Source of the DNA: Halobacteria archaeon
GTDB taxonomy: Archaea; Methanobacteriota_B; Thermococci; Methanofastidiosales; NM3
Assembly (NCBI GenBank): GCA_036733165.1
Contig: DAINBB010000003.1
Location: 7,546-71,545, forward strand
Direction: 5' to 3'
Length of the DNA stretch: 64,000 nt
Shown: positions 1 to 43,022 of the stretch, piece by piece
How positions within the stretch are numbered: the stretch's first letter is position 1
Layout of the letters: each line of letters opens with the position of its first letter
Notes under the pieces: model-generated
What the model saw: the letters and a program-made list of their open reading frames with translations, nothing else
Told to the model about the DNA's origin: nothing
Databases searched by the model: none
Position numbers and translations under genes: made by a program

Positions 1-2
1 TG

Positions 3-1934
3 GGCGTCGAACTTGACGAGAACGGGTTCTTCAAGGAGCGCGACCTGATATCCTGCCCCATGGAGAGCTCAAGGCCGGGAGTGTTCCTTTCGGGCTGTTC
101 ACAGTCACCTAAGGATATCCCCGATTCTGTTGCCCAGGGTTCTGCGGCAGCTGCGATGGTCATGGACATATTGCCAAAGCCCGTCATCAAGCCTGTCGAG
201 CAGTCCCCTGAAAAGGCCATCAAGGCCGACGATGAACCAAAGATAGGCGTGTTCATCTGCATGTGCGGTAAGAACATAGCAGGTTACATGGATGTCAACA
301 AGCTCTCGGAGTACGCATTGTCATTGCCAAATGTCAAGCATGCGGAGACATTGATGTTCGCATGTTCACAGGATGCCCAGGGCAAGATCAAGAAGGCTAT
401 CAAGGACAACGACCTCAACCGTGTCGTCGTTGCGGCATGCACGCCAAGGACCCATGAGGCCCTCTTCCAGGACACGATAAGGGAAGTTGGAATCAACAAG
501 TTCCTCTTCGAGATGGCAAACATCAGGAATCAGTGCTCATGGGTGCATTCGAACGACCCAGAGGTCGCTCTTCAGAAGGCCAAGGAGCTTGTGAATATGT
601 CTGTCGCCAAGGCGCGTCTGCTGGAATCGTTGGACCAGGGTCAGATAGAGGTCGAGGAATCGGCCATGGTGATAGGCGGCGGTGTATCTGGCATGAGCGC
701 TGCACTGGCACTGGCGGAATCCGGTATCAAGGTCTATCTCGTTGAGAAAAAGGACAAGCTTGGAGGAATGTTGAACGAACTCACTACACTGTATCCTTCA
801 GACATCAAGGCCCAGGACGTAGTCGACAAGCTTGCAGACGAGATTTCCAAGAACAAGAACATCGATGTGATGATAAACACGGTCATTAAGAACATATCTG
901 GTTACATCGGCAACTTTGAGGTGGAGCTCAAGGAAGTTGATCCGATGTACAAGAACTTTGAGGAGCCATTCAAGGTCGGGACTGTAATCATCGCCACCGG
1001 AGCTGAGCTCATCGACCCCAAGGGAATATACGGGTATGGCGACAGCGACAAGATAATCACCCAGCAAGAACTGGAGAAGATGCTCAAGGAGGGCACGTTC
1101 CCCAAGGATGCCAAAGAGGTAATATTCATATCTTGCGCCGGAGCCAGGGAAGACGAGGGCAGGACCTACTGTTGCAGGGTAGGATGCGGCACGATGCTCA
1201 GGAACGCAAAGGCCCTCAAGGAACTTGACCCCGACCTGAACCTGTTCGTCCTCTTCAGGGACATGAGGTCCTTCGGTAAGAAAGAGGAGGAATACTATGT
1301 CGACGTTCAGGAAAAATACGGTGTCAAATTCCTTAGGTACGAGAAGGACAACAAGCCTCAGGTGACCGTCGAGAACGGAGATGTGAAGCTTCTTGTGCAC
1401 GACATGCTTCTGGGTGAGGACCTTGAGTTCAAGCCCGATATGGTCGTGCTCACAACACCGACAGAGGGACAGGCAGAGGACGTTGCAATGATGCTCAAGG
1501 TGCCAACGTCAAAGAACGGTGGGTTCTTCATGGAGGCCCATGCCAAGATAAGACCGCTAGACTTCGCCACTGATGGTGTCTATGTCTGCGGTAGTGCACA
1601 CTTCCCCAAGGGAGTTGCAGACTCGATCGCGCAGGCGGTCGGCGCGGCATCAAGGGCGGCGGTCCCGATTTTCGAGAGGATCGTCAAGGGAGAGGCCATC
1701 GTCAGCGATGTTGACCAGGAAAAATGCATCGGTTGCGGTATATGCGTCAGCATCTGTCCATACGGTGCAATGGCACTAACAGAGGGAAAGTCCCAGTCCA
1801 ACAAGGCTCTCTGCAAGGGGTGCGGCACATGCGCTTCGGCCTGCCCGATGTTCGCGATAAAGATGCCACACTTCACTGACGGCCAGATATTCGAACAGAT
1901 CAAGGCTGCGACCGAGAAGCCCGGAGGTGCATGA
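3..1934 (+). CDS. hdrA: HdrA-like flavoprotein, 5'-partial, apparent tandem fusion. The C-terminal part of an upstream HdrA-like FAD domain runs in frame into a complete HdrA (N-terminal Cys4 domain, FAD domain, C-terminal 2x[4Fe-4S] ferredoxin).
   Basis: Frame is open from window position 3 with no stop. Residues [26 protein letters not shown] match the HdrA FAD-domain C-terminal motif. This is followed by [19 protein letters not shown], which matches the N-terminus of the second HdrA at 3858 (MIGVFICFCGQNIGGYINV). Also present: [17 protein letters not shown] dinucleotide fold, two CxxCxxCxxxCP motifs near the C-terminus, and ATGA stop/start overlap with the next gene. Confidence 0.8.
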
Positions 1935-2686
1935 AAATGGCAGAAGAAAAGTTTGAACCTAAGATAGTGGCTTTCACATGCAACTGGTGTTCATATGCAG
2001 GTGCAGACCTGGCGGGTACATCGCGTATCCAATATGCGCCGAACATGCGCATCATCCGTGTCATGTGCTCTGGCAGGGTCGAACCTACCTTTATCCTGGA
2101 AGCCCTAAAAGAGGGTGCCGACGGCGTATGCGTTCTCGGCTGCCACTTCGGGGACTGCCACTACATAAGCGGGAACTATGAGGCCAACAGGAGAATGGAG
2201 CTTCTGAAGAAGCTCTTCCAGGACCTAGGCATCGATGAGAGAAGGATAATGATCGAATGGGTCTCTGCCTCTGAAGGGGAGAGATTCTCAGAGGTCGTCA
2301 ACAACTTCACGGAGCAGATAAGGGAACTTGGACCATTGCCCCCAGATTACAATGACAAGCTCGAGCTGATAAGGGGTGCCCTTGAGGGAGAGAGGCTCAG
2401 GATCGTCCTGGGTTCCACCAAGAGGGCGTTCGAAGGCGGCAGTGTAGAGGAGGAAAGGTACAATACGGCCCTCCACGACATCGCGAAGGACGAAATCGAC
2501 AGGGTCAAGATGTTCAAGGTCCTTGACAGGGAGGCTCGTCCGCTCACGGTTCCAGAGTTCTCTGAAATGACCGGAATTCCCAAGATGACGGTATGGAGAC
2601 ACGTACTCTCACTCACAAGGAAGAACCTCCTTGAGGCAATTGGTGAGGAGCATCAATACATGCTGTACCAAAGGAGGGGTGTGTAA
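1931..2686 (+). CDS. mvhD: MvhD-like (methyl-viologen-reducing hydrogenase delta subunit) domain protein with an approximately 110-aa C-terminal extension resembling a winged helix-turn-helix. The likely true start is ATG 1937 (RBS GGAGGTG 1924-1930).
   Basis: [19 protein letters not shown]...[36 protein letters not shown] is the canonical MvhD Cys pattern. The C-terminal [31 protein letters not shown] looks like an HTH recognition helix plus wing. Confidence 0.8.
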
Positions 2687-3861
2687 TGGTCATCAAGGAC
2701 GAGGAGATGGACTTCGAGTTCTCAAAGAAACTTGAGAAGGAGCTTGAGAACAGCTTTGCGAAGTGTTTCCAGTGCGGTACCTGCACAGCCAGGTGCCCCG
2801 GGGGCGTCATCTCCGATTACAGGACAAGAAAGTTCATGAGAATGGCCCAATTGGGTCTAAAGGACAAGATACTGGGCTCAGAAGACCTATGGAACTGCAC
2901 GACATGTTCCACCTGCAAGATCCTTTGCCCTTGGGAAGTAGACCCCCTATCCACGATCTTGAAGCTGAGAAGGGAAGCGGTCAAGGCCGGCAAGGAGAAC
3001 AAGAAGCATGATCCCCTAGTGAAGAGCCTTATCAACTATGACAACCCCTGGTTGCAACCAAGGGCGGCAAGGAAGAAATGGTACAAGGGTCTCGATGTCG
3101 TTGACCTCTCAAAGGAACCCGGCAAGGCGGATGTGCTCTATTACGTTGGATGCACGGCCACCTTCGACAAGAGGCTGTGGGGCATGTCAAGATCTGTGGT
3201 CAAGGTCCTCAACAAGGCAGGCATCACCGTAGGTGTGCTTGGCAAGGATGAGAAGTGCTGCGGAGGTACTGTCCGCGGTGTGGGTCATCCAGAGATCTTT
3301 GAAGAGCTGGCGAAACAGAATGTAGACGATCTCAACAACGCCGGCGTGGACACTATAATATTCTCATGTCCCGGATGTCTCAACACGATAAAGAACGCAT
3401 ACAAGGCCGAGAAGATAGGGGAAATAAAACCCAGGCTCATTCATGTCGTTGAATATGTGGACGAGCTTCTCAAGGAAGGCAAGCTGAAACTTGACAAGGA
3501 TGTCAAGAGGATAGTCACATACCATGACCCATGCCACCTTGGAAAGCACTGTGAGGTTTTCGATGCCCCGAGGGATATCCTCAAGGCCATCCCTGGACTT
3601 GACTTCAGGGAGATGAAGTTTGTAAGAAAGGATTCCTGGTGTTGCGGTGCCGGCGGAGGCGTGAAGACTGCATTCCCCGAGCGCGCGACAGAACTGGCGG
3701 TCAATCGTCTGGATCAGGCGGAGGAGACGGAAGCTGACACGATATGCAGCGCATGCTCGTTCTGCTATCAGAATCTTTTGGACGGTCTGGTGGCCAAGAA
3801 GGATTCCAAGATGGAGATGAAAGATATTATGGAACTTGTAGCGGAGGCGATTGAGGAATGA
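2686..3861 (+). CDS. hdrD: HdrD-like iron-sulfur/CCG-domain oxidoreductase (HdrC-like 2x[4Fe-4S] ferredoxin fused to an HdrB-like tandem CCG domain)
   Basis: CFQCGTCTARCP and CTTCSTCKILCP ferredoxin motifs. Two CCG domains (…GCTATFD…KCCGGTV… and …HDPCHLGKHC…WCCGAGGGV). TAATG overlap with mvhD, and RBS AAGGAGGGG upstream. Confidence 0.8.
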   Translation: MVIKDEEMDFEFSKKLEKELENSFAKCFQCGTCTARCPGGVISDYRTRKFMRMAQLGLKDKILGSEDLWNCTTCSTCKILCPWEVDPLSTILKLRREAVKAGKENKKHDPLVKSLINYDNPWLQPRAARKKWYKGLDVVDLSKEPGKADVLYYVGCTATFDKRLWGMSRSVVKVLNKAGITVGVLGKDEKCCGGTVRGVGHPEIFEELAKQNVDDLNNAGVDTIIFSCPGCLNTIKNAYKAEKIGEIKPRLIHVVEYVDELLKEGKLKLDKDVKRIVTYHDPCHLGKHCEVFDAPRDILKAIPGLDFREMKFVRKDSWCCGAGGGVKTAFPERATELAVNRLDQAEETEADTICSACSFCYQNLLDGLVAKKDSKMEMKDIMELVAEAIEE

Positions 3862-6140
3862 TTGGCGTATTCATATGTTTCTGCGGACAGAACATTGGTG
3901 GTTACATCAATGTCCCAGAGCTCACAGACTACTTCAATAACTGGAGAGATGACGTTGTTGCCTTCAACACAACATTCCTTTGCTCCGAGATCGGTCAGGA
4001 TTTGATCAAGGACAAGATAGAGGAATTGAACCTTGAGGCAGTGGTAATTGCTTCATGTTCTCCTAAGCACCATGGTGGGATCTTCCAGGCCTGCATTGGA
4101 CAGAAGATGAACCAGTACAGGTGGGAGTTTGCCAACATCAGGGAGCAGTGTGCTTGGGTGACACCCAACAAGAAGAATGCCACCGAGAAGGCCAAGGCCA
4201 TCATAGCCGGCGCCGTCGAGAAGGCCAGATTGTTGCAGGACATCGGTTCAACAAGGGTGCCTGTGACCAAGGACGTCCTTGTCATAGGCGGAGGTATCGC
4301 TGGTATGCACGGTTCCTTGGAACTCACTGACAAGGGATTCCATGTGCACATGGTGGAAAAACAGGAGACCATCGGCGGACACATGGTACAGTTCGACAGG
4401 GTATTTCCGACCGATGACTGTGCAATGTGTACGAGCTCGCCTATTCTTGCCGACGTAGCAATGGACCCACTGATAGACATATACTCCCTTTCCGAGGTCA
4501 TAGAGGTCCGAGGAAGGCCTGGAGAGTATATTGTGAAGATCAGAAGAAATCCAAGATATGTCGATGAGTCTAAGTGTACGGCCTGCGGTGACTGTACCAC
4601 GCACTGCCCAGTCGAGGCCTGGAGCGAATGGCGCTATGGAATGGCGGTCAGGTCTGCGATAGACAAGCCGCTTGCACAGGCTGTGCCGCTCAAGAACAGG
4701 ATATACAATGACACATGTATCAGGTGCGGGACCTGTGAGAACGTCTGTAAGGCAGATGCGGTTCTATATAATCAGGAACCCGAGGAGTTCGAGATAACCG
4801 TCGGTGCGATAATGATATCGACAGGCTACGACATTCTTGACCTTTCAAACACAGAATATCATCAGGAGCATCCCAATGTCATATCCCATCTGCAACTTGA
4901 GGCGCTGAAGGTGCCATCTGGTCCAACGGCCGGAGAGATTCTGAGGCCATCGGACGGTAAGATGCCGAAGCACCTCGTGTTCGTACTATGTGCGGGGTCC
5001 AGGGACAGGAGACACAACGTATACTGTTCCAAGGTGTGCTGCATGTACACCACCAAGAACGCAAGGCTGATCAAGGCGGAGAATCCCAACATGAAGATCA
5101 CCATTTGCTATATCGACGTCCGTGCTGCAGGAAGGGGATATGAGGAATACTTTGACAAGGCCCGTGAGATGGGCATAAACTATGTCAGAGGCAATGTGTC
5201 CGAGATAGTTCCCAACGGGGAGGACCTCATAGTGAGGCTCGAGGACACCTTCACGAGCGAGCCATTGGAGCTTGACGCTGACCTTGTTGTCCTGTCAAGC
5301 GGAATGGTGCCTTCGCAAGGTACCAGGGACATGTCCGAAGTGATACATGTGGTATCTGGCGCAGACAAGTTCCTTGCGCCGGTGCACGTGAAGATCGCGC
5401 CTGTCGACACTGCCAACACCGGTGTCTACATCGCGGGTACCGTTGAGGCACCCAAACCTATCCAGGAGTCAATCACGGACGCGGGTCTCGTGGCATCCAG
5501 GATAGCCACGTTCCTTAAGGATCCCGAGATAGAGATCGATCTGAAGACCTCGAAGATAAACGCCGACGTATGTATAAAGTGCGGCACATGCGCGGACAAC
5601 TGTGTCTACGATGCCATTGACACCACCGGTGAGGACTTCAAGGTGCTTGATGTGTCATGCCAGGCATGCGGTAAGTGCTCGGTGATATGTCCGACAGGGG
5701 CCATTGACCTTCAGTTGTACACCGAGGACCAGCTCATCAAACAGGTCGATGGTATACTGGAGCAGGACCCGGACTCGATAATAGGATACTGCTGTTACCA
5801 ATGCGGTTACAACGCCGCTGACCTTGCAGGTACTGCAAAGGCTTTCATAAACCCCAAGGTCAAGGTCGTATTGGTGCCCTGTTCAGGACGTGTGACCATA
5901 CAGCACATGCTCTATCCGTTCTTCAAGGGCGCGAAGGGCGTCTTCCTCGCAGCATGCCTCGAGGGCCAGTGCCATTACATAGACGGCAATCTGCAGGCCA
6001 AGGAGAAGGTCAAGCTGGCGAAGAAATCACTGGACCTGATGGGTGTTGGTGGACGTAAGCTGAATCTGTTCAACATGTCCTCGGCAGAAGGTCCTAAGTT
6101 TGTCGCTGCTGCTAAAAGGATGGTGGAAATATGTCAGTAG
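3858..6140 (+). CDS. hdrA: HdrA-MvhD fusion protein (HdrA2-type): N-terminal Cys4 domain, FAD domain with an inserted ferredoxin domain, C-terminal ferredoxin, then a fused MvhD domain
   Basis: MIGVFICFCGQNIGGY N-terminal domain; VLVIGGGIAGMHGSLEL FAD fold; four CxxCxxCxxxC(P) motifs; C-terminal YCCYQCGYNAADLAG…VPCSGRV…ACLEGQCHY is MvhD-like. ATGA overlap with the upstream gene. Confidence 0.85.
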   Translation: MIGVFICFCGQNIGGYINVPELTDYFNNWRDDVVAFNTTFLCSEIGQDLIKDKIEELNLEAVVIASCSPKHHGGIFQACIGQKMNQYRWEFANIREQCAWVTPNKKNATEKAKAIIAGAVEKARLLQDIGSTRVPVTKDVLVIGGGIAGMHGSLELTDKGFHVHMVEKQETIGGHMVQFDRVFPTDDCAMCTSSPILADVAMDPLIDIYSLSEVIEVRGRPGEYIVKIRRNPRYVDESKCTACGDCTTHCPVEAWSEWRYGMAVRSAIDKPLAQAVPLKNRIYNDTCIRCGTCENVCKADAVLYNQEPEEFEITVGAIMISTGYDILDLSNTEYHQEHPNVISHLQLEALKVPSGPTAGEILRPSDGKMPKHLVFVLCAGSRDRRHNVYCSKVCCMYTTKNARLIKAENPNMKITICYIDVRAAGRGYEEYFDKAREMGINYVRGNVSEIVPNGEDLIVRLEDTFTSEPLELDADLVVLSSGMVPSQGTRDMSEVIHVVSGADKFLAPVHVKIAPVDTANTGVYIAGTVEAPKPIQESITDAGLVASRIATFLKDPEIEIDLKTSKINADVCIKCGTCADNCVYDAIDTTGEDFKVLDVSCQACGKCSVICPTGAIDLQLYTEDQLIKQVDGILEQDPDSIIGYCCYQCGYNAADLAGTAKAFINPKVKVVLVPCSGRVTIQHMLYPFFKGAKGVFLAACLEGQCHYIDGNLQAKEKVKLAKKSLDLMGVGGRKLNLFNMSSAEGPKFVAAAKRMVEICQ

Positions 6141-8083
6141 ATGAGAAGAAGGAAGAACCTATCCAGGTATCCGGCGGATGCGAGATAGGTGGCGTCTTGG
6201 AATGTGCCACCTGCAAGAGATGTTCGCTTGTCTGTCCGACAGAGCTTAACCTGGAAAAGGTCGTAAGGATCTCAAGATACCTCAGGGACCCGAAAGGATC
6301 CCACAGGAACATCTTCAAGATCACGTCGAAGCTCGCCGGAATGGCGGAGACACAGAGCTGGCTCAAGAACGGCGAGACAGGCACTGACATAGCATACTTC
6401 CCAGGTTGTTCAGCCCTCTTTGACATACTGTTGCAGAGGGACACCAACTACGCTGGTTCCGCCGAGGCGGCCGTGCTCGTATTGAACAAGCTAGGTTTCA
6501 AACCAGAAGTCATCTATGGCTGTTGCGGACATGACCTATATTACTCGGGTGCGCTCGATGAGTTCGAGACCGTCAAGAAAGAGATGATGAAGAAGGTCGA
6601 GGGCAAGAAGATAGTGGTCGGTTGTGCCGAATGCTACCATATGCTCAAGAACGTATATGGCATAGAGGATACGATACCTTTCGCAGAGTTCGTCCTTCAG
6701 CACAATCCGAAGTTCGAAAAGACCGACCTCAAGACCACCTACCACGACCCATGCAGGCTTGGCAGGTACAACAGCGTCTACGATGCTCCAAGGGAACTTC
6801 TGAAGAAGGCATCCGACTTCAGGGAGATGGAGAACATAAGGGAAGAGGCCATATGTTGTTCCGTTTCCGCCTGGCTCAACTGCAACAAGACGGCAAGGGA
6901 GGTCAGATTCAACAGGATCAAGGAAGCGAAGGCGACTGGCGCGGATTACCTTGTGACCGCATGCAACAAGTGTTCCATACATCTCGACTGTGTCCATTAC
7001 GAACTCAACAAGGAAGAGGTCGAGGAGCTCAGCGATATCAAGATAATGGGGCTTGAGGAGGTCGTCGGCTACGCCATGGGTGTCTATGACCCGTTCAAGG
7101 AGGAGAAGTCGTACGAGGTGCCGGAGATCACAGGCAAGTTCCTTGAACCGATCGAGATCGAGAAGGACCTTGAGAGATATATCGACGAGGAACTTGTCGA
7201 AGAGGCGTTCAAGTGCACGTCCTGCAAGAACTGCGCCATTGTATGCCCCGTGCATTACGATACCCCCGGAATGATGATGGAGGTATTCAGGCCGGAGCTT
7301 GTAAAGCGCGGCCACGGTCCTGAGAAACACGCGAAGATAGAGGGCGTCCTAAGGAAGACCGGAAATGCTTTCGGTGCGGAGGAAGGCGTAAAGACCAAAC
7401 TAAATCCAAAGGCAAAGTATGTATACTTCCCGGGATGCGTTGCTCAGTTCAGGCGCGATGACGTTTTCCAGGCAACGACCAAGATCTTGGACCTTCTCAA
7501 GATCGACTATGAGATACCAGAAGGGCTCGTATGTTGCGGTTCCGTCCTGAAGAGGACAGGTCACCCGATGGACTTCCTGATCGAGCAGAACATGAAGCTG
7601 CTCAAGGGCAAGCCCATAATCACATCCTGTTCAGGTTGTTATGCAACCTTGAAGAAGGACTATGAGGGCCTTGAGGTGTATCACATAACAGATATCATCA
7701 AGGAGAATCTGGACAAGCTTCCGCTGAAGGAGGTCAAGAAGAAGGTCATGTACCACGATCCTTGCCACCTTGGAAGGAAGTTCAGTTACTACGACATCCC
7801 AAGGGAGATAATCGAGGCCATTCCGGGCATTGAGCTCGTACCCTTCGACAAGGAGAAGGAGAACGCGCAATGTTGTGGTGCAGGTGGCGGGGTGAAGTCT
7901 GCGAAGCCAGACATCGCAAACAAACTTGCACAGAAGAAGATGGACGAGGCCAAGGAAAAGAAGGCCGACATGGTCGTATCATCATGTCCCTTCTGTGAGC
8001 TCAATCTTCAGGACAACAACAACGACATACCGGTGGTCGACATCCTGAATCTCCTTATGGAATCACTGGGGGTGGAAGCATGA
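6131..8083 (+). CDS. Internally duplicated HdrD-like protein: two consecutive [ferredoxin + CCG + CCG] units in one polypeptide
   Basis: Unit 1: CATCKRCSLVCP; YFPGC…CCGHD; HDPCRLG…ICCSVSAW. Unit 2: FKCTSCKNCAIVCP; YFPGC…VCCGS; HDPCHLGRKF…QCCGAGGGV. Confidence 0.75.
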   Translation: MSVDEKKEEPIQVSGGCEIGGVLECATCKRCSLVCPTELNLEKVVRISRYLRDPKGSHRNIFKITSKLAGMAETQSWLKNGETGTDIAYFPGCSALFDILLQRDTNYAGSAEAAVLVLNKLGFKPEVIYGCCGHDLYYSGALDEFETVKKEMMKKVEGKKIVVGCAECYHMLKNVYGIEDTIPFAEFVLQHNPKFEKTDLKTTYHDPCRLGRYNSVYDAPRELLKKASDFREMENIREEAICCSVSAWLNCNKTAREVRFNRIKEAKATGADYLVTACNKCSIHLDCVHYELNKEEVEELSDIKIMGLEEVVGYAMGVYDPFKEEKSYEVPEITGKFLEPIEIEKDLERYIDEELVEEAFKCTSCKNCAIVCPVHYDTPGMMMEVFRPELVKRGHGPEKHAKIEGVLRKTGNAFGAEEGVKTKLNPKAKYVYFPGCVAQFRRDDVFQATTKILDLLKIDYEIPEGLVCCGSVLKRTGHPMDFLIEQNMKLLKGKPIITSCSGCYATLKKDYEGLEVYHITDIIKENLDKLPLKEVKKKVMYHDPCHLGRKFSYYDIPREIIEAIPGIELVPFDKEKENAQCCGAGGGVKSAKPDIANKLAQKKMDEAKEKKADMVVSSCPFCELNLQDNNNDIPVVDILNLLMESLGVEA

Positions 8084-8706
8084 GCGAAGCCGAGACAAAG
8101 AAGGTGGATCAGATGGAAGAGGACCCGTACGAACTGGAGAACTTCCACAAGATCCTTGAGGACAGCAAGATCCTCAACTGCGTCCAATGCGGGAAATGCA
8201 CCGGAGGCTGCCCTGCAGGAAGGGACTCCAGGATAAGGATAAGGGAGCTTATCCATCTTGCCCACGAGGGTCATGACATCAAGGACTGCAAGGAGCTATG
8301 GCTTTGCACAACATGCTACAACTGCCAGGAAAGGTGTCCCAAGGGCGTTGACACGACAGAGGCCATCATTTCCCTGAGAAACAGGGCCATAAGAAAGGGC
8401 GACCACAACTTCCCGGAGATCCACGTCACCGCGATCACGTCCTTGCGTGATCAGGCCGATGGATTCCCGCTCAGCCCCGATGTTGAGTCTATCAGGTCTG
8501 TCATCGGACTTCCGAAACATCCGCACGACCTGGCCCATGACCCAGAGGGTCTCAAGAAGTTCCAGGAACTCATGGACGACCTTGACATCGTGGGACTAAT
8601 CGAGAAGCAATGTGGCGACAGCAAGCCATGGAAGTACGTGGACATCGATTACAAGCCACCAGTTGCCAGAGGCGCCAAGAAGAAGGAGGCTGAGTCAGAT
8701 GAGTGA
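8080..8706 (+). CDS. hdrC: HdrC-like subunit (2x[4Fe-4S] ferredoxin)
   Basis: CVQCGKCTGGCPAG and CTTCYNCQERCPKGVD motifs. ATGA overlap with the upstream gene. Confidence 0.8.
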   Translation: MSEAETKKVDQMEEDPYELENFHKILEDSKILNCVQCGKCTGGCPAGRDSRIRIRELIHLAHEGHDIKDCKELWLCTTCYNCQERCPKGVDTTEAIISLRNRAIRKGDHNFPEIHVTAITSLRDQADGFPLSPDVESIRSVIGLPKHPHDLAHDPEGLKKFQELMDDLDIVGLIEKQCGDSKPWKYVDIDYKPPVARGAKKKEAESDE

Positions 8707-9604
8707 AGAGGAAACAAGGAAACAGGAGACTTACTCTCTTTTCCCTGGATGCATCGCCAAGAACATGTATCCCTCCATAGAGAAGTCTACATATACCATC
8801 TTTGAGAAGATAGGCGTAAAGCTTCTCAATCACAGATACTCCTGCTGTCCAGCACCAGGTGTCTTCAGGGGATATGACAGGAAGACCCACATGACACTAG
8901 GTGTCAGGAACATAGTCATGGCGGCACAGGACAACGTGGATGTCATGACAATATGCAACGGATGCTACGGTTCCCTTTGGGAAGCGAACGAGATGTTCAG
9001 GAAGAGCAAGGAGAACCAGGAATTTGTGAACGGGAAACTTGCCAAGATAGGGCTCTCATACGATGGGAAGACCGAGGTGCTCCACTTCGTGGATGTTCTT
9101 CACAAGCACTTGGAGGATGTGGAGAATGCAAAGGAGATCGATCTTGGTCTTAAGGTGGCGGTCCATTACGGATGCCATTATCTGAGGCCGTCTGACAAGC
9201 ATCCCGACATCAATCCCGAAAGCCCACACGTCATCGAGGATGTCGTTGAGGCATTGGGCTGCGAGAGCGTGGACTTCAAGAACAAGCTTTCCTGCTGCGG
9301 TGCCGGCGGAGGTGTCTGGAGCGGAGCAGAGGAACTTGGGCTCAGGGTCCTTGATGCGAAGCTCAAGAACGTTCAAGAGTCAGGCGCAGACTGCATAGTC
9401 AACATATGCCCGTTCTGCCACATGCACCTTGACCAGAGCCAGGGCAAGCTTGAGGAGAGGTACAAGATACCTATCCTGCACCTTAGCGAGTTGACCGGTC
9501 TGGCATTTGGCATAAGACCAAAACACCTTGCGATGCACACGCACCTGATATCCACGCGTGACATCGAGAAGAAGATCAAGAGCGCAAAGAAGGAAAAGGC
9601 ATAG
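8699..9604 (+). CDS. hdrB: HdrB-like subunit (two CCG domains)
   Basis: ATG at 8699 overlaps the hdrC stop (8704-8706). FPGCIAKN…SCCPAPG and HYGCHYLRP…SCCGAGGGV motifs. The track ORF began further upstream with out-of-context residues. Confidence 0.8.
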   Translation: MSEEETRKQETYSLFPGCIAKNMYPSIEKSTYTIFEKIGVKLLNHRYSCCPAPGVFRGYDRKTHMTLGVRNIVMAAQDNVDVMTICNGCYGSLWEANEMFRKSKENQEFVNGKLAKIGLSYDGKTEVLHFVDVLHKHLEDVENAKEIDLGLKVAVHYGCHYLRPSDKHPDINPESPHVIEDVVEALGCESVDFKNKLSCCGAGGGVWSGAEELGLRVLDAKLKNVQESGADCIVNICPFCHMHLDQSQGKLEERYKIPILHLSELTGLAFGIRPKHLAMHTHLISTRDIEKKIKSAKKEKA

Positions 9605-9650
9605 ACCTTTCCTTTATTTTTTTTCTATTTGTAAGACAAATTTTTTATTA
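9605..9650 (+). terminator. Oligo-T rich tract directly after hdrB (archaeal-type terminator candidate)
   Basis: cctttattttttttctatttgtaagacaaattttttatta; runs of 8 and 6 T. Confidence 0.4.
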
Positions 9651-9676: not shown

Positions 9677-11443
9677 ATGGTGGTCATGATGCTCAATTAT
9701 TCTGGTGGTCTTAATTTTCATAGAATGGGCCTCTTCATTGGAATTATAGTCTTCTTTATCATGTTGATGCTGCCATCGTTTGGTTCCATGGATGACAGCA
9801 GCTATGATGTAATCTATGAAAAACTGCCGACAGATCTGAAGGAAAAAATATCCAGCGAGTTCGGTGATGTTAATGATGACAACTTTGATGATTTCTTGGA
9901 ATACTCCAAGTCCGTGGGTGTCTCGATATCAAAGACATCGGCGTCCTTCATCTCGGACCAGACCTACGATTCCCTCTCTTACAAATCGAACTATGCGGCG
10001 CCCATAAGCCTCTATGAGCTGATAAAGGGACAGAGCGAGGCACAGATGAAGGTCTTGGCGATCGCCCTTCTGATGGCGATATGGTGGATCACGGAGGCGA
10101 TACCCGTTTCTGTGACAGCCCTTCTTCCTGCCATGTTGCTTCCGTTCCTGGGCGTATGCCATTACAACGGCAACACATACCCTGGATACTTCTCTGCCTT
10201 TGAGCAATATGCCAATTACCTGATATTCCTTTTCCTTGGGGGATTCATAATCGCGGCGTCTATGAGGAAATGGGGTCTGGACAAGAGGATATCCCTCAAC
10301 ATACTTCGTGTATTTGGAACAAAACCTTCCAGGGTAGTGCTGGGATTCATGGTGGCCACAGCATTCTTGTCAATGTGGATATCCAACACCGCCACCGCGG
10401 CAATGATGATGCCTGTGGCGCTGGCGGTCCTGACGCAGGCCGGCCTAAAACCCGGCAAGAGCTCCTTTGGGTTCTGCCTCATGCTATCCATAGCCTATGC
10501 GGCGTCCATAGGCGGCATTGGCACGTTGATAGGCACGCCTCCCAACGGCATTGCGGTGGGATTCATTGCACAGTTCCAGGGAAAGGTGATAACATTCGCC
10601 GATTGGCTGAAGATAGGCCTGCCCATTGTAATAATATTTCTTCCGATAGCGTGGAGATACATAATATGGCGCTTTCCGCCCGAAGTTGAGGAGATATCCG
10701 GTGGCAAGGGAGTTATCAGGGAAAACCTGCGCAAACTTGGCAACCTCTCGACCGGTGAGAAGACGACCCTTTTCGTTTTCGTCCTCACTGCCGTCATGTG
10801 GGCCACAAGGTCATCCATAGTAATAGGCGACTTCACATTGCTGAAGGGATGGTCAACATGGTTTGGGGGATACTTTTCGTTCGTTCATGACAGCACGGTG
10901 TCCATCCTGGCGGTCATACTCCTGTTCCTATTGCCTGTCGGTGAGGGGAAGTTCACAATGGACTGGAGTACTGCAAGCAGATATGTTCCATGGGGCACAT
11001 TGATACTGTTCGGCGGGGGTCTCACACTTGGCAAGTCCATAGCTAACACCGGGCTTTCCTCCTGGTTCGCTTCGCATCTCACATCGTTTGGATCAGTGAA
11101 TATCGTCATCGTGCTGCTTGCCATAGCCATTATGAGCGTGCTTCTATCAGAGGTCACCTCGAACACTGCGACCACCTCCATGCTGATGCCTGTCATGTTC
11201 TCGCTTGGGGTGGCACTGAACAGGGATCCCGTGACATTCATGATAACATCCGCCGTGGCAACATCCATGGTGTTTTCCTTGCCTGTCGCGACTCCGCCCA
11301 ATGCAATAGTCTTTGGAACTGGTTATGTGGGCATCGACAGGATGGCCAAGAACGGCATACTTCTTGACTTTATTGGCATAATAATCTGGACGATTGTTGT
11401 GTATCTGGTGATAGGGACGCTATTCGGCATAATCGCTGTCTGA
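9677..11443 (+). CDS. DASS/SLC13-family anion (di/tricarboxylate or sulfate) symporter with an N-terminal approximately 130-aa extension
   Basis: Polytopic membrane protein with internal repeat. Motifs of the ArsB/NhaD/DASS superfamily: SNTATAAMMMPV and SNTATTSMLMPV re-entrant loops. Confidence 0.75.
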   Translation: MVVMMLNYSGGLNFHRMGLFIGIIVFFIMLMLPSFGSMDDSSYDVIYEKLPTDLKEKISSEFGDVNDDNFDDFLEYSKSVGVSISKTSASFISDQTYDSLSYKSNYAAPISLYELIKGQSEAQMKVLAIALLMAIWWITEAIPVSVTALLPAMLLPFLGVCHYNGNTYPGYFSAFEQYANYLIFLFLGGFIIAASMRKWGLDKRISLNILRVFGTKPSRVVLGFMVATAFLSMWISNTATAAMMMPVALAVLTQAGLKPGKSSFGFCLMLSIAYAASIGGIGTLIGTPPNGIAVGFIAQFQGKVITFADWLKIGLPIVIIFLPIAWRYIIWRFPPEVEEISGGKGVIRENLRKLGNLSTGEKTTLFVFVLTAVMWATRSSIVIGDFTLLKGWSTWFGGYFSFVHDSTVSILAVILLFLLPVGEGKFTMDWSTASRYVPWGTLILFGGGLTLGKSIANTGLSSWFASHLTSFGSVNIVIVLLAIAIMSVLLSEVTSNTATTSMLMPVMFSLGVALNRDPVTFMITSAVATSMVFSLPVATPPNAIVFGTGYVGIDRMAKNGILLDFIGIIIWTIVVYLVIGTLFGIIAV

Positions 11444-13270: not shown

Positions 13271-14041
13271 CTACTGTTTAATCTCCCTCCAGGAGAAATA
13301 TCTCTTCTCGATCAGCTTGAAGCTTCTGTCAATGAGCAGTCCGATTATGCCTATGTATATGATACCTGAGATGATTATGGAGATCTGCCCTACGGTATTG
13401 GCCTGCCAGATAAGGTACCCAAGCCCTGAAGGGGCTATCCCAGGCATCATCTCTGCGGCCACGAGGCACATCCATGCTATTCCCATGCCGATCCTGAGCC
13501 CAGTGACAATGTATGGCGAGGAATGCGGGATCACTATCTTCCTCATTATGTCATAGTCGCTTGCATCAAAGGTCTTTGCGACCTCGATGTGCGATTTGCT
13601 TATGCTCTTGACGCCCTCGATGGTATTGACCAGTATCGGGAAGAATGCGCCAAGGAATATTATCATCACGGCGGACCTGAGACCAAGACCCAACCATGCC
13701 ATTATGAGGGGTATCCAGGCAAGTGGTGGGATCGGCCTAAGCACCTCCACGATATAATCAAAGAGGTCCCCAAGGTACTTCGACCATCCCATCCCGACTC
13801 CGAGGGGGATGGCTATCAGGCATGCGAGTCCGAATCCCAGCACTACCCTCTTCAGCGAATAGTAGGTATTCTCTATCAAAGTGCCGGTTCCAAGAAGACT
13901 ATTGTTGGGATGGGTGACAATGGATAATATTTTTACAAGTTGAGGTAGTTTCCAAGGATTGTCGATAGACATCGCAATCAGTTCCCATCCTACCACTATA
14001 CAGATAGGCACTATCAGTTTAATGATCTTCCTGTTCATCAT
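13271..14041 (-). CDS. ABC transporter permease (TauC/SsuC-like, BPD inner-membrane component)
   Basis: Six predicted TM helices; conserved loop AAEMMPGIAPSGLGYLI. Operonic with the ATPase. Confidence 0.8.
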   Translation of the reverse strand: MMNRKIIKLIVPICIVVGWELIAMSIDNPWKLPQLVKILSIVTHPNNSLLGTGTLIENTYYSLKRVVLGFGLACLIAIPLGVGMGWSKYLGDLFDYIVEVLRPIPPLAWIPLIMAWLGLGLRSAVMIIFLGAFFPILVNTIEGVKSISKSHIEVAKTFDASDYDIMRKIVIPHSSPYIVTGLRIGMGIAWMCLVAAEMMPGIAPSGLGYLIWQANTVGQISIIISGIIYIGIIGLLIDRSFKLIEKRYFSWREIKQ

Positions 14042-14222
14042 AGCACCTTGACTATAGGATATATACTAAAATATATTATTATATAATATATTCTGGACCT
14101 TTCCCTGATAAAATCCATGACTACTTTCTGGCGTTTGTTTAAAAATCTTTCTTAAAATTATTTTATCTGTTTTAGGAATATTATTTACCCAAAAGTATAA
14201 ATAATTCTATTTTATACTACTT

Positions 14223-14756
14223 TTGTGTGTTTATATGACTTATATCGATGTCTTGAACTCTATAGCGATATCCCATGACAGGTTCATAGAGTCTCTTAAG
14301 AAGACGATATATGATGAACACCACATGTCCATATCCAGCTTCGCCGACTATTCCAAGATACCTAAGAGCACCTTGTATAAGATATTTGATGGAAACAGGG
14401 AACCTACCCTCAAGGCTGTGAGGGACATATTAAAATCCCTTAAAAGGTTGGAAGATGTGACAGACCAACCGTTCATTGCAGTAATAGCTGCCAGGTCAGT
14501 CCTTTCAATGTATTCCCGCAACACCATAAAGATAAATAACAAGGAATACACGATACGGGAATACTCTGCTGTCACGATGGACGATGCCATAATATCGGCC
14601 GTAAATGCCGAGAGGGGCGGGGCCTTGGCGATAGTGTGCGCCCCCATCGTGTCGCCTTCCATTGACAGATTGGTCAAGATCCCCGTAATCACCATGATGC
14701 CAAAGTTCGCGCTCGAGGACGCGATCAAGAGGGCTGCGAAAAAAATATCGGAATAA
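14223..14756 (+). CDS. Putative HTH-containing regulator (XRE-like helix-turn-helix plus uncharacterized C-terminal domain)
   Basis: SKIPKSTLYKIFDGNREPTLKAVRDILKSL resembles a Cro/C1 HTH. The likely start is ATG at 14235. Divergent from the ABC operon across an AT-rich spacer. Confidence 0.45.
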   Translation: MCVYMTYIDVLNSIAISHDRFIESLKKTIYDEHHMSISSFADYSKIPKSTLYKIFDGNREPTLKAVRDILKSLKRLEDVTDQPFIAVIAARSVLSMYSRNTIKINNKEYTIREYSAVTMDDAIISAVNAERGGALAIVCAPIVSPSIDRLVKIPVITMMPKFALEDAIKRAAKKISE

Positions 14757-14772
14757 TAAAATAAAAAAGGAA

Positions 14773-15972
14773 TTAGACCTTGTAGTCTATTCCTGATTCC
14801 TGCAAAGCGTATTTGATCATTACATCCTGTATTGCGCCTATCATCGGAACGCCGATCTTTACAGTATCCCCTTCAGCGTACATCTCCTTTATCCAGTCGA
14901 TGAACTCGTCCCAGTTGTCCGCCGGCACATCGTTTGCAACAACAACACCCGAACCCTCTGTCTGCACTGGGGAGATTATCTTGGCTGGCGAGCCCTGGTC
15001 AATGAACATGATCGCCGGTGGGGCGCCGATGATCGCATAATCGAGATTTCCCTGGCTTATCGCCGTCATCACTGCGGAACCTGCTGAGAACTCTATGACA
15101 TTGACATTCGCGACCAAGGTCTCGTTCACATACAACTGGTAATCTGTCCCAGTCCCTGGGTTATCTGAATACAGATATATGCCAACATTGTCCCTGAAGT
15201 ATTCCCAATCATAGGCTGCCACGAAGAGTGCTGCATCATGGTCCGATGGAAGATAACCGAAACTTACCGTGGGGACGTTCCCTGAGAACTCATCATCGAG
15301 GTAGTCCATGCTCGTTAGGCTTTCATAGGCATCGTTGTATAGGCCAAGCTCAAGCAGGGCATCCAGTAACTCGTCGCCGGAAAGGTCCACCAGTTTGTCG
15401 TTTATCATGTCTATCTCCTTAAGGGACTCAACGAAGAGCTCTATGCCATTCAGCCAATCCTCGGATGGTTCCGTGACAAACCTTATCGTCTCTATCGACA
15501 TCTCCTCGACGTCGTATGAGTTCACTATGATGTCTCCGAAGGCCAGGTCCTCGCCACCAAAGAGCCAGTCGGCACAATATGCCACCGTTTCCTCCGTATG
15601 AGTCTCAATGTAGGAATCTGCACTGATCATCAACATGGTGAGGTACTTGACTATATCATAGTCCTCTTCAATGAAACTGTCAGTGGATACAAGGCAGCAA
15701 CACGGATGATTGGTCCATTGTCCGTCTGGTGGAAGGTTCTCTGAATATGTAATGACCTTTCCAACCTCAGCGACCTCTGCCACAGACACCATAGGTTGCC
15801 AGGCGATATATGCATCCAATTGATCGTTCGCTAGGGCAGAGGGCATTGTTCCACACCCTGACATGTAGACGAGTTCCACCACAGGTGTATCGGTTTCCTC
15901 ATCTCCACCTATACAGCCCGAACAAACAATTCCAACCAGTATGATCAAACCAATCAATATCCTCTTTAGCAT
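14773..15972 (-). CDS. NMT1/SsuA/TauA-like substrate-binding lipoprotein with a long acidic insertion
   Basis: N-terminal signal with lipobox-like SGCIGG. SBP-like segments (AWQPMVSV; GNLDYAIIGAPPAIMFIDQG). Start moved to M17 (ATG 15970-15972) with GGTGA upstream. Confidence 0.55.
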   Translation of the reverse strand: MLKRILIGLIILVGIVCSGCIGGDEETDTPVVELVYMSGCGTMPSALANDQLDAYIAWQPMVSVAEVAEVGKVITYSENLPPDGQWTNHPCCCLVSTDSFIEEDYDIVKYLTMLMISADSYIETHTEETVAYCADWLFGGEDLAFGDIIVNSYDVEEMSIETIRFVTEPSEDWLNGIELFVESLKEIDMINDKLVDLSGDELLDALLELGLYNDAYESLTSMDYLDDEFSGNVPTVSFGYLPSDHDAALFVAAYDWEYFRDNVGIYLYSDNPGTGTDYQLYVNETLVANVNVIEFSAGSAVMTAISQGNLDYAIIGAPPAIMFIDQGSPAKIISPVQTEGSGVVVANDVPADNWDEFIDWIKEMYAEGDTVKIGVPMIGAIQDVMIKYALQESGIDYKV

Positions 15973-32310: not shown

Positions 32311-32946
32311 TCAATCGACCTTCTTGTAGCAGAACCACCAGTCCTTGCACTCGAGGCTGTCGTCCTTGAGCCTTTTCTCCGCTTCCTCGACAGTGGTCGC
32401 GGGCGGAACTATGGCCCTGCCGCCTATGAACTCGTTGTTCGGCCAGTTGGCGGGCGCGGCAACCTTGTTCTTGTCCGTGAACTGGAGCGCCTTGACTATC
32501 CTCACTATCTCATCGAGGTTTCTTCCGATCTCCTGTGGATAGTATAGTATTACCCTTATTATGCTGTTCGGGTCTACAACGAACACCGCCCTGACGGTGT
32601 TGGAACCCTTGTTTGGATGAAGCATTCCAAGCATCTTTGAAAGTTTCCCATGGTCGGCGATAACTGGGAAAGGTATCTTTACACCAAGATTCTCTTCTAT
32701 CCATTGGACCCACATGATGTGTGAGAATACTTGGTCTATCGAGAGCCCTATTAGTTCACAGTTGAGCTCCTTGAGTTCAGGCGCCTTCTTTGCGAACCCT
32801 GCAAACTCGGTAGTGCATACTGGAGTGAAGTCACCTGGGTGACTAAAAAGGATGAACCATTTTCCCGAATATTCATTGGGAAGTATCTTCCTTCCCATGG
32901 TAGTTACCACCTTGACCTCCGGGAACTTATCCCCGATGAGGGGCAT
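32311..32946 (-). CDS. Peroxiredoxin (1-Cys/Prx6-type thiol peroxidase)
   Basis: [19 protein letters not shown] peroxidatic Cys motif; start set at [10 protein letters not shown]. Confidence 0.85.
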
Positions 32947-33085
32947 GCTTCTTTCTTCTTCACACATTTCAATACCTCTTTTGATTTGTGATAATCGTTA
33001 TGTTGGGGGATTATAATAATTTTTTTCAGAAAAGCATTAAAAACTTGTAGAAAATATGAATACAAAGAAAAAAAGGAGGTATCTC

Positions 33086-33202
33086 ATGACGAAGGTAGGA
33101 GAAAAGTACATCTGCGACATATGCGGAAACGAGGTCGAGGTCGTCAAGGCCGGAGGCGGGACGCTTGTATGTTGCGGAGTAAAGATGAGACTTACAGATT
33201 AA
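33086..33202 (+). CDS. dsr: Desulforedoxin (37 aa), absent from the ORF track
   Basis: MTKVGEKYICDICGNEVEVVKAGGGTLVCCGVKMRLTD with the CxxC…GGGTLVCCG desulforedoxin signature. RBS GGAGGT 6 nt upstream. Confidence 0.7.
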   Translation: MTKVGEKYICDICGNEVEVVKAGGGTLVCCGVKMRLTD

Positions 33203-33208
33203 TCTGAG

Positions 33209-33225
33209 TCCATGCCCTGCATGGA
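33209..33225 (+). other. Short hairpin TCCATG-ccctg-CATGGA followed by a C/T-rich tract between dsr and fprA
   Basis: 6-bp inverted repeat read from sequence. Confidence 0.25.
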
Positions 33226-33251
33226 CCCTTCCCTTTTCAAGGGGGATCCCA

Positions 33252-35342: not shown

Positions 35343-35348
35343 TCCGGC

Positions 35349-37685: not shown

Positions 37686-37705
37686 TGTGTTGGAGGTAGG
37701 AACAA

Positions 37706-38200: not shown

Positions 38201-38319
38201 GAGATGAGATTATGTACGATGATGACGAAATGGAGACGTTGTTCTGCTTCGAGCCTTCGAAGCATGTTGGAAAGAGCAATGGCAGGGTACTTTACTTTCT
38301 ATACAACAAATATATGTAG

Positions 38320-41592: not shown

Positions 41593-41597
41593 TTACA

Positions 41598-43013: not shown

Positions 43014-43022
43014 ATAATCCCC

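Follow-up and report, generated by a model that had tools for sequence, protein, structure and literature searches.

The window, a stretch of 64,000 nucleotides (nt) from contig DAINBB010000003.1 of a Candidatus (Ca.) Methanofastidiosa archaeon, opens with seven genes for proteins of the heterodisulfide reductase (Hdr) and MvhD type, here called g1 to g7 (1-9604; all coordinates are window positions 1-64,000 unless a contig is named). In methanogens that lack cytochromes, energy coupling centers on soluble Hdr complexes. All seven genes lie on the + strand, with successive stop/start overlaps of 4, 1, 4, 10, 4, and 8 nt, and a GGAGG/GGTGG-like motif is found 5' of each start. The first of them, g1 (1..1934), has an open reading frame (ORF) open to the window edge and is represented by the 3' 1,934 nt of a 3,063-nt gene; extension by 7.5 kb (L001) into the left of the 98.7-kb parent contig (JGI 3300010350, Ga0116244_10000231), followed by translation, places its start 1,128 nt left of the window and gives a full product of 1,020 amino acids (aa). 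It is followed by g2 (1931..2686; 251 aa, MvhD with a winged helix), g3 (2686..3861; 391 aa, HdrD-like), g4 (3858..6140; 760 aa, an HdrA::MvhD fusion), g5 (6131..8083; 650 aa, a tandem HdrD or 'dHdrD'), g6 (8080..8706; 208 aa, HdrC), and g7 (8699..9604; 301 aa, HdrB).

A conserved element resembling the TFB recognition element and TATA box (BRE/TATA) lies upstream of g1 only, and a run of eight T residues (T8; 9617..9624, + strand, read directly from the sequence) begins 13 nt past the g7 stop and is probably the archaeal oligo-T terminator of the operon. Because overlaps occur at all six junctions, with the promoter-like element only before g1 and the T8 run after g7, g1 to g7 likely form a single operon. 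In this upstream region (L001 6164-6229, about 1,290-1,360 nt left of window position 1) the BRE/TATA-like element, CGAAAACTTTTTAAAT, is invariant in a three-way alignment of the window contig, L082, and L002. An inverted repeat, TGATTTCC-N7-GGAAATCA, follows about 27 nt downstream, the leader to the g1 start measures about 165-190 nt, and a divergent helix-turn-helix (HTH) gene lies further upstream (L001 4727-5485); the region looks like a regulated promoter with an operator. A search of Rfam with the long 5' leader returned only a chance match to a human long non-coding RNA model. A scan for sigma-70 promoters and hairpin terminators was set aside as inapplicable to an archaeon, and the upstream alignment was used in its place.

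Searches of each product with hidden Markov models from Pfam confirm the HdrA, FlpD/MvhD, CCG, and ferredoxin domains named in the original prediction, which had been made from the letters of the window, and matches to solved structures agree with the flavin and Fe-S assembly of the Hdr/MvhD type that it proposed. The seven products are all predicted to be soluble Hdr/MvhD-type flavin and Fe-S proteins, with no membrane-type hydrophobic segment in any of them (maximum KD19 ≤1.82). The prediction of seven co-directional, overlapping genes, likely on one transcript, holds, as does that of two MvhD domains (g2 and g4), but ATGA or TAATG junctions, said to occur throughout, are found at four of six; the remaining two are ATG...TAG (10 nt) and ATGAGTGA (8 nt). 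Two further counts needed correction. In place of two HdrA modules the cluster holds three HdrA-type modules binding flavin adenine dinucleotide (FAD), since full-length g1 contains two, and in place of five CCG-domain modules it holds four. Its CX(n)CCX(n)CXXC motifs number eight, all of them complete; g5 has four, and g3 and g7 have two each. The four two-CCG, HdrB-like modules are g3, the N half of g5, the C half of g5, and g7.

The Fused HdrA Encoded by g1

The g1 product matches the solved HdrA in three segments (E 9e-218) and contains two thioredoxin-reductase (TrxR)/FAD modules in one polypeptide. Module 1 (aa 1-445, its end encoded at 1-206, + strand) combines a TrxR/FAD unit with an inserted 2x[4Fe-4S] ferredoxin domain, while module 2 (aa 446-1020; 207-1931, + strand) comprises an N-terminal Cys domain, a TrxR/FAD unit, and a C-terminal 2x[4Fe-4S] ferredoxin domain. 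Residues were mapped by MAFFT alignment with the HdrA of 5ODC (5ODC_A). Half 1 retains Cys194/Cys197, the eight Cys of the inserted ferredoxin domain, the TrxR-cluster Cys, Glu356, and Lys409, the last as K280, which is encoded left of the window. Half 2 has neither Cys194/197 nor the inserted ferredoxin domain, and the site of the flavin-N5 lysine (Lys409 of the solved HdrA) is occupied by Arg777 (codon 1200..1202, + strand). The two halves show complementary loss of the N-domain and of Cys194/197. Self-heterodimeric fused or tandem HdrA with such complementarity has been proposed in anaerobic methanotrophic archaea (ANME; Chadwick et al., 2022, PMC9012536), and in its two FAD domains and complementary losses g1 matches the 'type II' HdrA of Lyu et al. 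(PMC12054007). The g1 product is clearly predicted to be a covalently fused, asymmetric HdrA pseudo-dimer.

The Extended MvhD Adaptor, the HdrD-like g3, and Their Likeness to BamDEF

The g2 product begins as an MvhD [2Fe-2S] adaptor (aa 7-137; 1949-2341, + strand; Pfam FlpD/MvhD, 3e-57) and ends in a predicted C-terminal winged helix-turn-helix (wHTH) behind a helical linker (aa 196-248; 2516-2674, + strand), to which Pfam gives weak matches (HTH_IclR, 6e-4). Its match to solved MvhD (E 5e-53) covers aa 9-137 only, after which come 114 extra residues; the whole is 251 aa long vs. 129-141 aa in the solved MvhD chains. In an AlphaFold2 model (predicted local distance difference test, pLDDT, 84.5) the MvhD fold and helical linker are followed by helices at 207-214 and 218-230 and a beta wing at 234-248, and Foldseek matches this model to MvhD (TM 0.86-0.89) and weakly to wHTH domains of the ArsR type. 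The C-terminal 118 aa used alone as a query found two close relatives and nothing further. Genes for MvhD with a wHTH like that of g2 (32-44% identity) are present in L067, L101, and L102, always beside two HdrA units, and the extension is therefore considered a genuine, conserved domain; single-unit clusters (L013, L020, L024, L105) encode plain MvhD.

The g3 product has a ferredoxin domain and two CCG domains (Pfam, 3e-34). Its ferredoxin motifs (2764-2928) form an HdrC-type 2x[4Fe-4S] domain and its two CCG motifs (3151-3378 and 3532-3765, all + strand) are complete, so that g3 is confidently predicted to be an HdrD-like protein, which joins an HdrC-type two-cluster domain to an HdrB-type unit and keeps both motifs for non-cubane clusters. 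Its best match in NCBIfam is to the C-terminal part of TfrB (230 bits vs. a cut-off of 385), and its matches among solved structures include EtfD and LutA.

The trio g1-g3 mirrors a module solved by cryo-electron microscopy (cryo-EM) in class II benzoyl-CoA reductase (BCRII). In this enzyme the fused HdrA dimer BamE bifurcates at its first flavin (Lys280) only, the second (Gln768) having a structural role, and its structure shows the pattern of complementary loss found in g1. BamF, an MvhD adaptor extended by more than 100 aa, docks the input module through its wHTH, and BamD is an HdrD-like high-potential output that passes electrons to an electron-transferring flavoprotein (ETF), its distal cluster being degenerate in most BamD homologues (10.64898/2026.04.10.717634). 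The same work shows that modules for flavin-based electron bifurcation (FBEB) can be stacked. The likeness to BamDEF of Geobacter metallireducens is one of architecture, set against published descriptions and not against Bam sequences: g1 shares one Lys FAD and one non-Lys FAD (K280/R777 vs. Lys280/Gln768), g2 the MvhD extension of more than 100 aa with a winged helix (predicted in g2), and g3 the HdrD-like layout. Unlike BamF, g2 has Cys and not selenocysteine; unlike most BamD homologues, g3 has every Cys of the distal non-cubane cluster; and genes for BamBC (tungsten AOR-type) and BamGHI (HydBC-like), the defining partners of BCRII, were not found in the window or the 7.5-kb upstream flank, and BCRII proper was rejected as an identity for the cluster.

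A winged helix joined to a redox domain might also belong to a redox-sensing transcription factor, its [2Fe-2S] domain controlling the wHTH and the protein regulating its own operon through the promoter palindrome. The weak matches of g2 to wHTH families of the IclR, MarR, and ArsR types, together with the conserved BRE/TATA-like element and the inverted repeat behind it, would fit such a regulator. However, g2 is translationally coupled within a structural operon, the solved wHTH of BamF is a protein-protein interface, and the separate divergent HTH gene upstream is the more obvious regulator, which makes this role very improbable. In the function proposed below, the g2 winged helix would be a protein-docking element and not a DNA binder.

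The HdrA::MvhD Fusion, HdrC, and HdrB

The products of g4, g6, and g7 resemble subunits of the solved methanogen enzyme. From end to end g4 matches the solved HdrA (5ODC_A, E 4e-175) as a four-domain HdrA that keeps all Fe-S Cys and the equivalents of Cys197, Glu356, and Lys409, and it carries a C-terminal MvhD domain (aa 641-757; 5778-6128, + strand; FlpD 1e-33) that matches MvhD chains at 1e-19 to 1e-27. The g6 product (Pfam Fer4_8) has two CxxCxxCxxxC motifs, at aa 34 and 76, and matches solved HdrC with E about 1e-24. That of g7 has two CCG domains (Pfam, 9e-37) with both motifs complete, and its match to solved HdrB (5ODC_B, E 7e-83) equals in closeness that of HdrB from the standard Methanofastidiosum operon. 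All three fall short of their NCBIfam equivalog cut-offs: g4 reaches 815 bits against its best match, HdrA2 (NF040770, cut-off 1100), and 597 against NF041778 (cut-off 1400; standard Methanofastidiosum HdrA 643), g6 reaches 116 against TIGR03290 (cut-off 160; HdrC of the standard operon 120), and g7 reaches 334 against TIGR03288 (cut-off 345; HdrB of the standard operon 327). Because the corresponding subunits of the standard Methanofastidiosum operon fall short of NF041778, TIGR03290, and TIGR03288 to the same extent, the shortfall against these models is taken to reflect divergence of the lineage, and g6 and g7 are firmly predicted to be bona fide HdrC and HdrB.

The Tandem HdrD and Its Family

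Four CCG domains are found by Pfam in the g5 product (2e-60). Each half, N (6131-7120) and C (7121-8080, both + strand), combines a single CxxCxxCxxxC motif with two CCG motifs, both complete, and the N half has two additional invariant Cys, C251 and C287; g5 is thus predicted to be a head-to-tail duplication of an HdrD-like unit with one cubane motif per half. The AlphaFold2 model (pLDDT 89.3, predicted template modeling score 0.84) is matched by Foldseek to EtfD, LutA, and HdrB, and the best NCBIfam match is TfrB (316 bits vs. a cut-off of 385). Both g3 and g5 align only to TfrB positions 129-488.

Full-length members of the g5 family are rare, forming only about five clusters at 50% identity among 1.84 billion representatives. 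The closest relatives (65-87% identity) come from metagenome-assembled genomes of Ca. Methanofastidiosa and are annotated only as 'hypothetical' or '(Fe-S)-binding'. A scan of genome contigs with the g5 alignment was dominated by generic CCG motifs (CCGGGGGVK, YHDPCHLG) and returned mostly single HdrD genes; L002 was its sole orthologue, with matches also in L013, L020, L024, and L067. Among the g5 matches are about 25 natural MvhD::HdrD fusions. Five independent contexts were read, and in all of them an HdrA::MvhD gene directly precedes the g5 homologue. The pair stands alone in Hydrothermarchaeota (L083/84), with TfrAB- and HdrDE-like genes nearby. In two contigs of Methanomassiliicoccales type (L085, 3862-11947; L094, 2293-11941) it follows hdrC, hdrB, and frdB-like and frdA-like genes, and in L093 (1457-11959) the order is acd, etfB, etfA, hdrC, hdrB, hdrA(GltD insert)::mvhD, tandem HdrD; hdrC-hdrB thus share the cluster with the g5 homologue in L085, L093, and L094. 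The FrdA-like protein of L085 and L094 is a 551-aa FAD_binding_2 flavoprotein, class I fumarase genes adjoin in L094, and this cluster could encode a bifurcating, thiol-linked fumarate reductase. The L093 HdrA, with its GltD-type insertion and MvhD fusion, is 1,274 aa long, and an Arf/Ras-type GTPase gene nearby suggests that the contig could derive from an Asgard archaeon.

Conservation and Related Clusters

The order g1-g7 is kept on independent contigs (L002, L082/L099, and L098; 70-93% protein identity), well beyond what chance would give, and for this reason the cluster is regarded, from comparative gene order, as genuine, conserved, and characteristic of Ca. Methanofastidiosa. In one related species (L082 6535-7614, equivalent to L099 at about 13,800-14,890) gene 3 is chimeric: its first ~65 aa are g3-like, the remainder shares 69% identity with the g5 C half, and a stray 38-codon ORF comes next. 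This gene is evidence that CCG modules of the operon have recombined with one another, and it argues that g3 and g5 are functionally interchangeable.

Beyond these orthologues, g1-g4 are collinear with L095, whose order is hdrC, hdrB, an HdrA resembling half 1 of g1, an HdrA resembling half 2, MvhD::HdrD, HdrA::MvhD, and polyferredoxin. The first of these HdrA proteins is 63% and 51% identical to half 1, and the second is 46.5% identical to half 2; the MvhD::HdrD is 57% identical to the g2 MvhD domain and, over the full length, 31% identical to g3. The genes g2 and g3 together are likewise collinear with the natural MvhD::HdrD fusions. In L067 (190-14138, Thermoplasmata) genes with VhuG and VhuA as best NCBIfam matches (below cut-off) precede hdrC and hdrB, and the locus continues with an opposite-strand HTH gene, MvhD with wHTH, a 1,009-aa type II HdrA, MvhD, an HdrD-like gene, and a split HdrA pair; hydrogenase genes and two type II HdrA units are thus found together at this locus. 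The HdrA of L105, 45% identical to g1, belongs to an acetogen-type cluster, FTHFS-HdrA-MvhD-MetV-HdrC-HdrB-MetF. L095 and L106 have several HdrA units, but their MvhD is plain or differently fused. A 474-aa glycine-cleavage-H (lipoyl-carrier) protein is encoded in L102 (4994-6418) just upstream of type II HdrA and MvhD with wHTH, and recalls the lipoate-binding proteins of sHdr systems.

A standard operon of the class, hdrA(659)-hdrC(182)-hdrB(299)-mvhD(137)-hycI, was located in Ca. Methanofastidiosum GCA_001587695.1 (L090), with a Methanofastidiosum HdrA sequence from the supplement of PMC12054007 as query. Compared with its subunits, g7 is 41% identical to HdrB, g4 is 39% identical to HdrA, and the MvhD domain of g2 is 61% identical to MvhD. 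Peptides of g1, g4, and L095 had no match among the entries listed in the HdrA supplementary table of PMC12054007. The closeness of g6, g7, and the MvhD domains to solved Hdr/Mvh subunits might suggest that the window holds an ordinary, duplicated methanogen hdrABC/mvhD locus. Such an origin is scarcely credible: the standard operon is laid out differently and simply, g1 fuses two modules, g2 carries an additional domain, g3 and g5 are of HdrD type, the g5 family is very small, and the leftward extension, proposed at the outset as the place to look for mvhAG or fdhAB, contains neither in its 7.5 kb. The cluster is instead regarded, on these comparisons, as an additional system with its own apparently genuine HdrBC, beside the standard operon of the class. 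Of the departure from canonical loci noted in the original prediction, the unlike layout stands, but clusters with multiple HdrA, MvhD, and HdrD units had already been described (PMC9012536; PMC12054007).

Proposed Function

The reading preferred here, in which belief and doubt are evenly balanced, is that g1-g7 encode a second, non-standard, soluble heterodisulfide-reductase-type FBEB assembly of a Ca. Methanofastidiosa methanogen, with its electron donor encoded elsewhere. It would comprise a module A (g1, g2, and g3) and a module B (g4-g7). Electrons would enter at the MvhD [2Fe-2S] centers from the donor, likeliest an Mvh-type [NiFe] hydrogenase, and be bifurcated at the Lys-bearing flavins of g1 half 1 and g4. 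The high-potential electrons would pass via cubane clusters of the HdrC type to as many as four HdrB-type sites, of which that of g7, and probably also those of g3 and g5, would reduce the heterodisulfide of coenzymes M and B (CoM-S-S-CoB) or a disulfide close to it; those of low potential would exit via the inserted ferredoxin domains to ferredoxin.

Several points weigh against this proposal. Every functional step is drawn from homology and gene order, and none of the seven products reaches an NCBIfam equivalog cut-off. The 64 kb of the window and the 7.5 kb beside it lack a donor gene, and MvhAG is attributed to this genome from literature on the class only. The standard operon was placed in a genome of the class (GCA_001587695.1), its co-residence with the window cluster being an assumption. 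A simple analogy with Mvh-Hdr leaves the need for four HdrB-like sites unexplained. Finally, g3 and g5 score best against TfrB, a thiol-oxidizing protein; the HdrD-like BamD of BCRII feeds an ETF and not a disulfide (10.64898/2026.04.10.717634); and the g5 family occurs in non-methanogens (Hydrothermarchaeota and the contig with the Arf/Ras-type GTPase gene) and beside fumarate-reductase-like or Acd/EtfAB genes, so that the substrate need not be CoM-S-S-CoB.

These last points lead to a different assignment, in which g3 and g5 serve another partner, be it a thiol/disulfide of another kind, an ETF-like protein, or a thiol cycle linked to fumarate, and g6/g7 alone form the true heterodisulfide reductase. 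In addition to the TfrB matches, the example of BamD, and the company of frdAB-like genes with fumarase (L085/L094) or acd-etfBA (L093), it draws on the EtfD and LutA matches among solved structures and on the conserved neighbor of the operon, a dicarboxylate/anion (DASS) transporter. Against it, every module has all ten of its Cys intact, unlike most BamD homologues, in which the distal cluster is degenerate; a gene for an ETF, a Frd flavoprotein, or another acceptor was not found in the window; and gene 3 of L082 has a copy of the g5 C half as its CCG part, which argues for a common role of g3 and g5. Such a division of labor is considered unlikely, and heterodisulfide reduction at all these sites is retained as the preferred function.

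The Electron Donor

As had been predicted for the window, no MvhA/MvhG hydrogenase or formate dehydrogenase gene is present, and this holds for the whole 64-kb window and the 7.5 kb to its left. The remainder of the window holds housekeeping, transport, and oxidative-stress genes, and the left flank encodes a NUDIX hydrolase, the divergent HTH regulator, an EF-Tu-like protein, DUF2124 and YaaH-family proteins, rubredoxin, and a PQQ_2-repeat gene. The donor, called undefined in the original prediction, does lack a gene nearby, but the field has been narrowed by the VhuG/VhuA-like genes of L067 and by the MvhADG of the class (PMC7302380). Both MvhADG and Ehb have been reported in Methanofastidiosa (PMC7302380; PMC6019823). 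Since L067 has such genes and MvhADG is reported for the class, an Mvh-type [NiFe] hydrogenase encoded elsewhere is judged the most likely donor. The Elp-Hdr complex (PMC12350162; PDB 8RVU) demonstrates that Hdr can exchange its donor module for a different one, of which an MvhD-related subunit is part.

The cluster might instead work without a hydrogenase, as a ferredoxin- or F420H2-dependent heterodisulfide reductase or confurcating complex whose donor binds HdrA or MvhD directly. HdrA2 is the best NCBIfam match of g4, which has the HdrA::MvhD fusion typical of HdrA2, and HdrA2B2C2 uses F420H2 and ferredoxin with no extra subunits (PMC5296606; PMC12054007). The g4-g5 pair stands alone in Hydrothermarchaeota, and a donor gene was found neither in the cluster nor in its close relatives. 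However, the HdrA2 score lies below its cut-off (815 vs. 1100), the elongated adaptor g2 suggests a docked partner, and the relative L067 has genes of Mvh-hydrogenase type (best matches VhuG/VhuA). A hydrogenase-independent complex is accordingly considered improbable, and supply from a separately encoded Mvh-type enzyme is preferred.

Possible Coupling of Modules A and B

A and B might also be wired in series via g2 and the MvhD part of g4, each HdrA-type bifurcation feeding its output to the next, so that several exergonic disulfide reductions at the four sites pay for one ferredoxin reduction at very low H2. Both modules are encoded in one translationally coupled operon; BCRII stacks FBEB modules, with the wHTH of a long MvhD homologue docking the upstream module; and MvhD with a wHTH occurs in clusters of the window type, L067, L101, and L102, which have at least two HdrA units, plain MvhD being found in the single-unit clusters L013, L020, L024, and L105. 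A second bifurcation in clusters with type II and type I HdrA was proposed by Lyu et al. (PMC12054007), and Methanofastidiosum has been inferred to live at very low H2 (PMC7382037). Yet the case is architectural throughout; L095 and L106 have multiple HdrA units with MvhD plain or differently fused; and the energetic argument is the reasoning of the present analysis. Serial double bifurcation is for these reasons held to be a speculative and rather unlikely arrangement.

If it did exist, it might take the form of one seven-protein machine with two serial HdrA bifurcations, in which the g2 wHTH would dock B onto A as BamF docks its input module, a picture that we regard as doubtful. No less conjectural is the 'low gear' that such a machine might provide, four HdrB-type sites paying for one or two ferredoxin-reducing arms. 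In a variant, the CCG protein that follows each MvhD may occupy the donor position, with a thiol/disulfide couple replacing H2 as the mid-potential partner. The two-module heterodisulfide reductase with a separate donor, whatever the contact between its modules, remains the preferred reading for the comparisons that follow.

Comparison with Known Systems

Among characterized complexes, MvhADG-HdrABC (PDB 5ODC; Fdh-Hdr, 7BKB; Elp-Hdr, 8RVU) offers clear homologues of g4, g6, g7, and the MvhD domains, which keep every cofactor ligand, and the chemistry, FAD-based bifurcation to ferredoxin and CoM-S-S-CoB, is probably the same. The window cluster differs in lacking genes for an MvhA/MvhG, Fdh, or Elp donor, in its additional fused HdrA, MvhD with wHTH, and HdrD-like and tandem HdrD proteins, and in having four HdrB-like sites where the known complex has one per HdrA. 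With HdrA2B2C2 of Methanosarcina acetivorans (PMC5296606) it shares the C-terminal MvhD fusion of g4, the HdrA2 best match, and HdrB and HdrC alongside; in contrast to that system, g4 is below the family cut-off, a tandem HdrD is present, and a type II HdrA module is part of the same operon.

Fused 'type II' HdrA and multi-HdrA/MvhD/HdrD clusters have been described in ANME, Methanosarcinales, and acetogens (PMC9012536; PMC12054007). These clusters and L095 share with the window a fused or tandem HdrA pair, MvhD, an HdrD-like protein, a further HdrA::MvhD, and hdrCB. In the 'consistent cluster' of Lyu et al., type II HdrA is accompanied by FdhB and a catalytically dead molybdopterin oxidoreductase (PMC12054007); FdhB and molybdopterin-oxidoreductase-like genes were not found in the window or its upstream flank, and the window cluster has no GltD insertion. 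In the window, moreover, MvhD and HdrD are split and a wHTH is added to MvhD, a tandem HdrD takes the place of the L095 polyferredoxin, and the host, unlike the ANME and Methanosarcinales that carry type II clusters, is a methyl-reducing methanogen of the class Methanofastidiosa.

The same fused two-module HdrA links the cluster, via L105, to MetFV-HdrABC-MvhD of acetogens (Moorella type), which has another partner set; MetFV-Hdr was rejected, its defining MetF/MetV genes not being found in the window. With the CCG proteins HdrD, TfrB, EtfD, and LutA, g3 and each half of g5 share the layout of ferredoxin plus two CCG domains and the fold. Membrane-bound HdrDE was rejected as well: a cytochrome b (HdrE) or membrane domain was not found with g3 and g5, nor was a NarI-like gene, and g1-g7 have no segment of membrane-helix type. 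TfrAB differs in that g3 and g5 have no N-terminal [2Fe-2S] domain and no TfrA flavoprotein accompanies them; it was rejected on scores below cut-off and on a FAD_binding_2/Succ_DH gene not being found in the window. For sHdr sulfur oxidation, also rejected, 6TJR matches the TrxR core only (E 4e-53 and 1e-33 vs. ~1e-175 or better for methanogen HdrA), and an LbpA/GCV_H gene was not found in the cluster.

Novelty and Significance

Fused HdrA and clusters with multiple HdrA, MvhD, and HdrD units have been catalogued, but none has been biochemically characterized, and what fused 'type II' HdrA and multi-HdrA clusters do in ANME and methanogens is recognized as an open question (PMC9012536; PMC12054007). 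New here is the occurrence of such a combination in Methanofastidiosa. To this may be added an apparent BamF-like MvhD with wHTH in a methanogen, the seemingly strict pairing of the rare tandem HdrD with HdrA::MvhD, and what appears to be a type II cluster without its typical FdhB and molybdopterin-oxidoreductase partners. An architecture of the BamE/F/D type, just solved in a bacterial aromatic-ring reductase, is thereby placed in a methanogen beside complete HdrA::MvhD/HdrCB.

If the modules are coupled, the stoichiometry of energy conservation would be changed in methyl-reducing methanogens at very low H2, and a true 'low gear' would yield reduced ferredoxin from H2 at pressures where 1:1 Mvh-Hdr bifurcation is no longer exergonic. 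If the cluster is merely a second Hdr isoenzyme, it would be mainly of specialist interest. Being a compact operon with no donor gene and with intact cofactor ligands, it is a clean candidate for heterologous expression and cryo-EM.

Neighboring and Other Genes of the Window

Directly downstream of the operon lies g8 (9677..11443, + strand; 588 aa), a symporter of the DASS family (TIGR00785, 317 bits, above cut-off) for sodium and an anion (dicarboxylate or sulfate), with an N-terminal extension of 120 aa. A TATA-like sequence, TTTTTTATTA, is found at 9641-9650, between the T8 run and g8, and g8 is probably a separate transcription unit. The gene is kept directly 3' of the operon in L082/L099 (74% identity).

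Further into the window, an oxidative-stress island (32311-38808) comprises a peroxiredoxin gene (- strand), a small desulforedoxin-like gene, a radical SAM protein, and two rubrerythrins, together with an FprA-type flavodiiron protein (33252-34442) and a heavy-metal P-type ATPase (35349-37685). A 2,144-aa protein with many Ig-like repeats of the CarboxypepD_reg, SdrD_B, and SpaA types is encoded at 56097-62531; it is presumably located at the cell surface, and its exact sequence was not on record in the protein collection searched. On the - strand, positions 39668-45775 hold an operon for a MoxR-type AAA ATPase and DUF58, DUF4350, and DUF4129 proteins, with a second gene of 471 aa.

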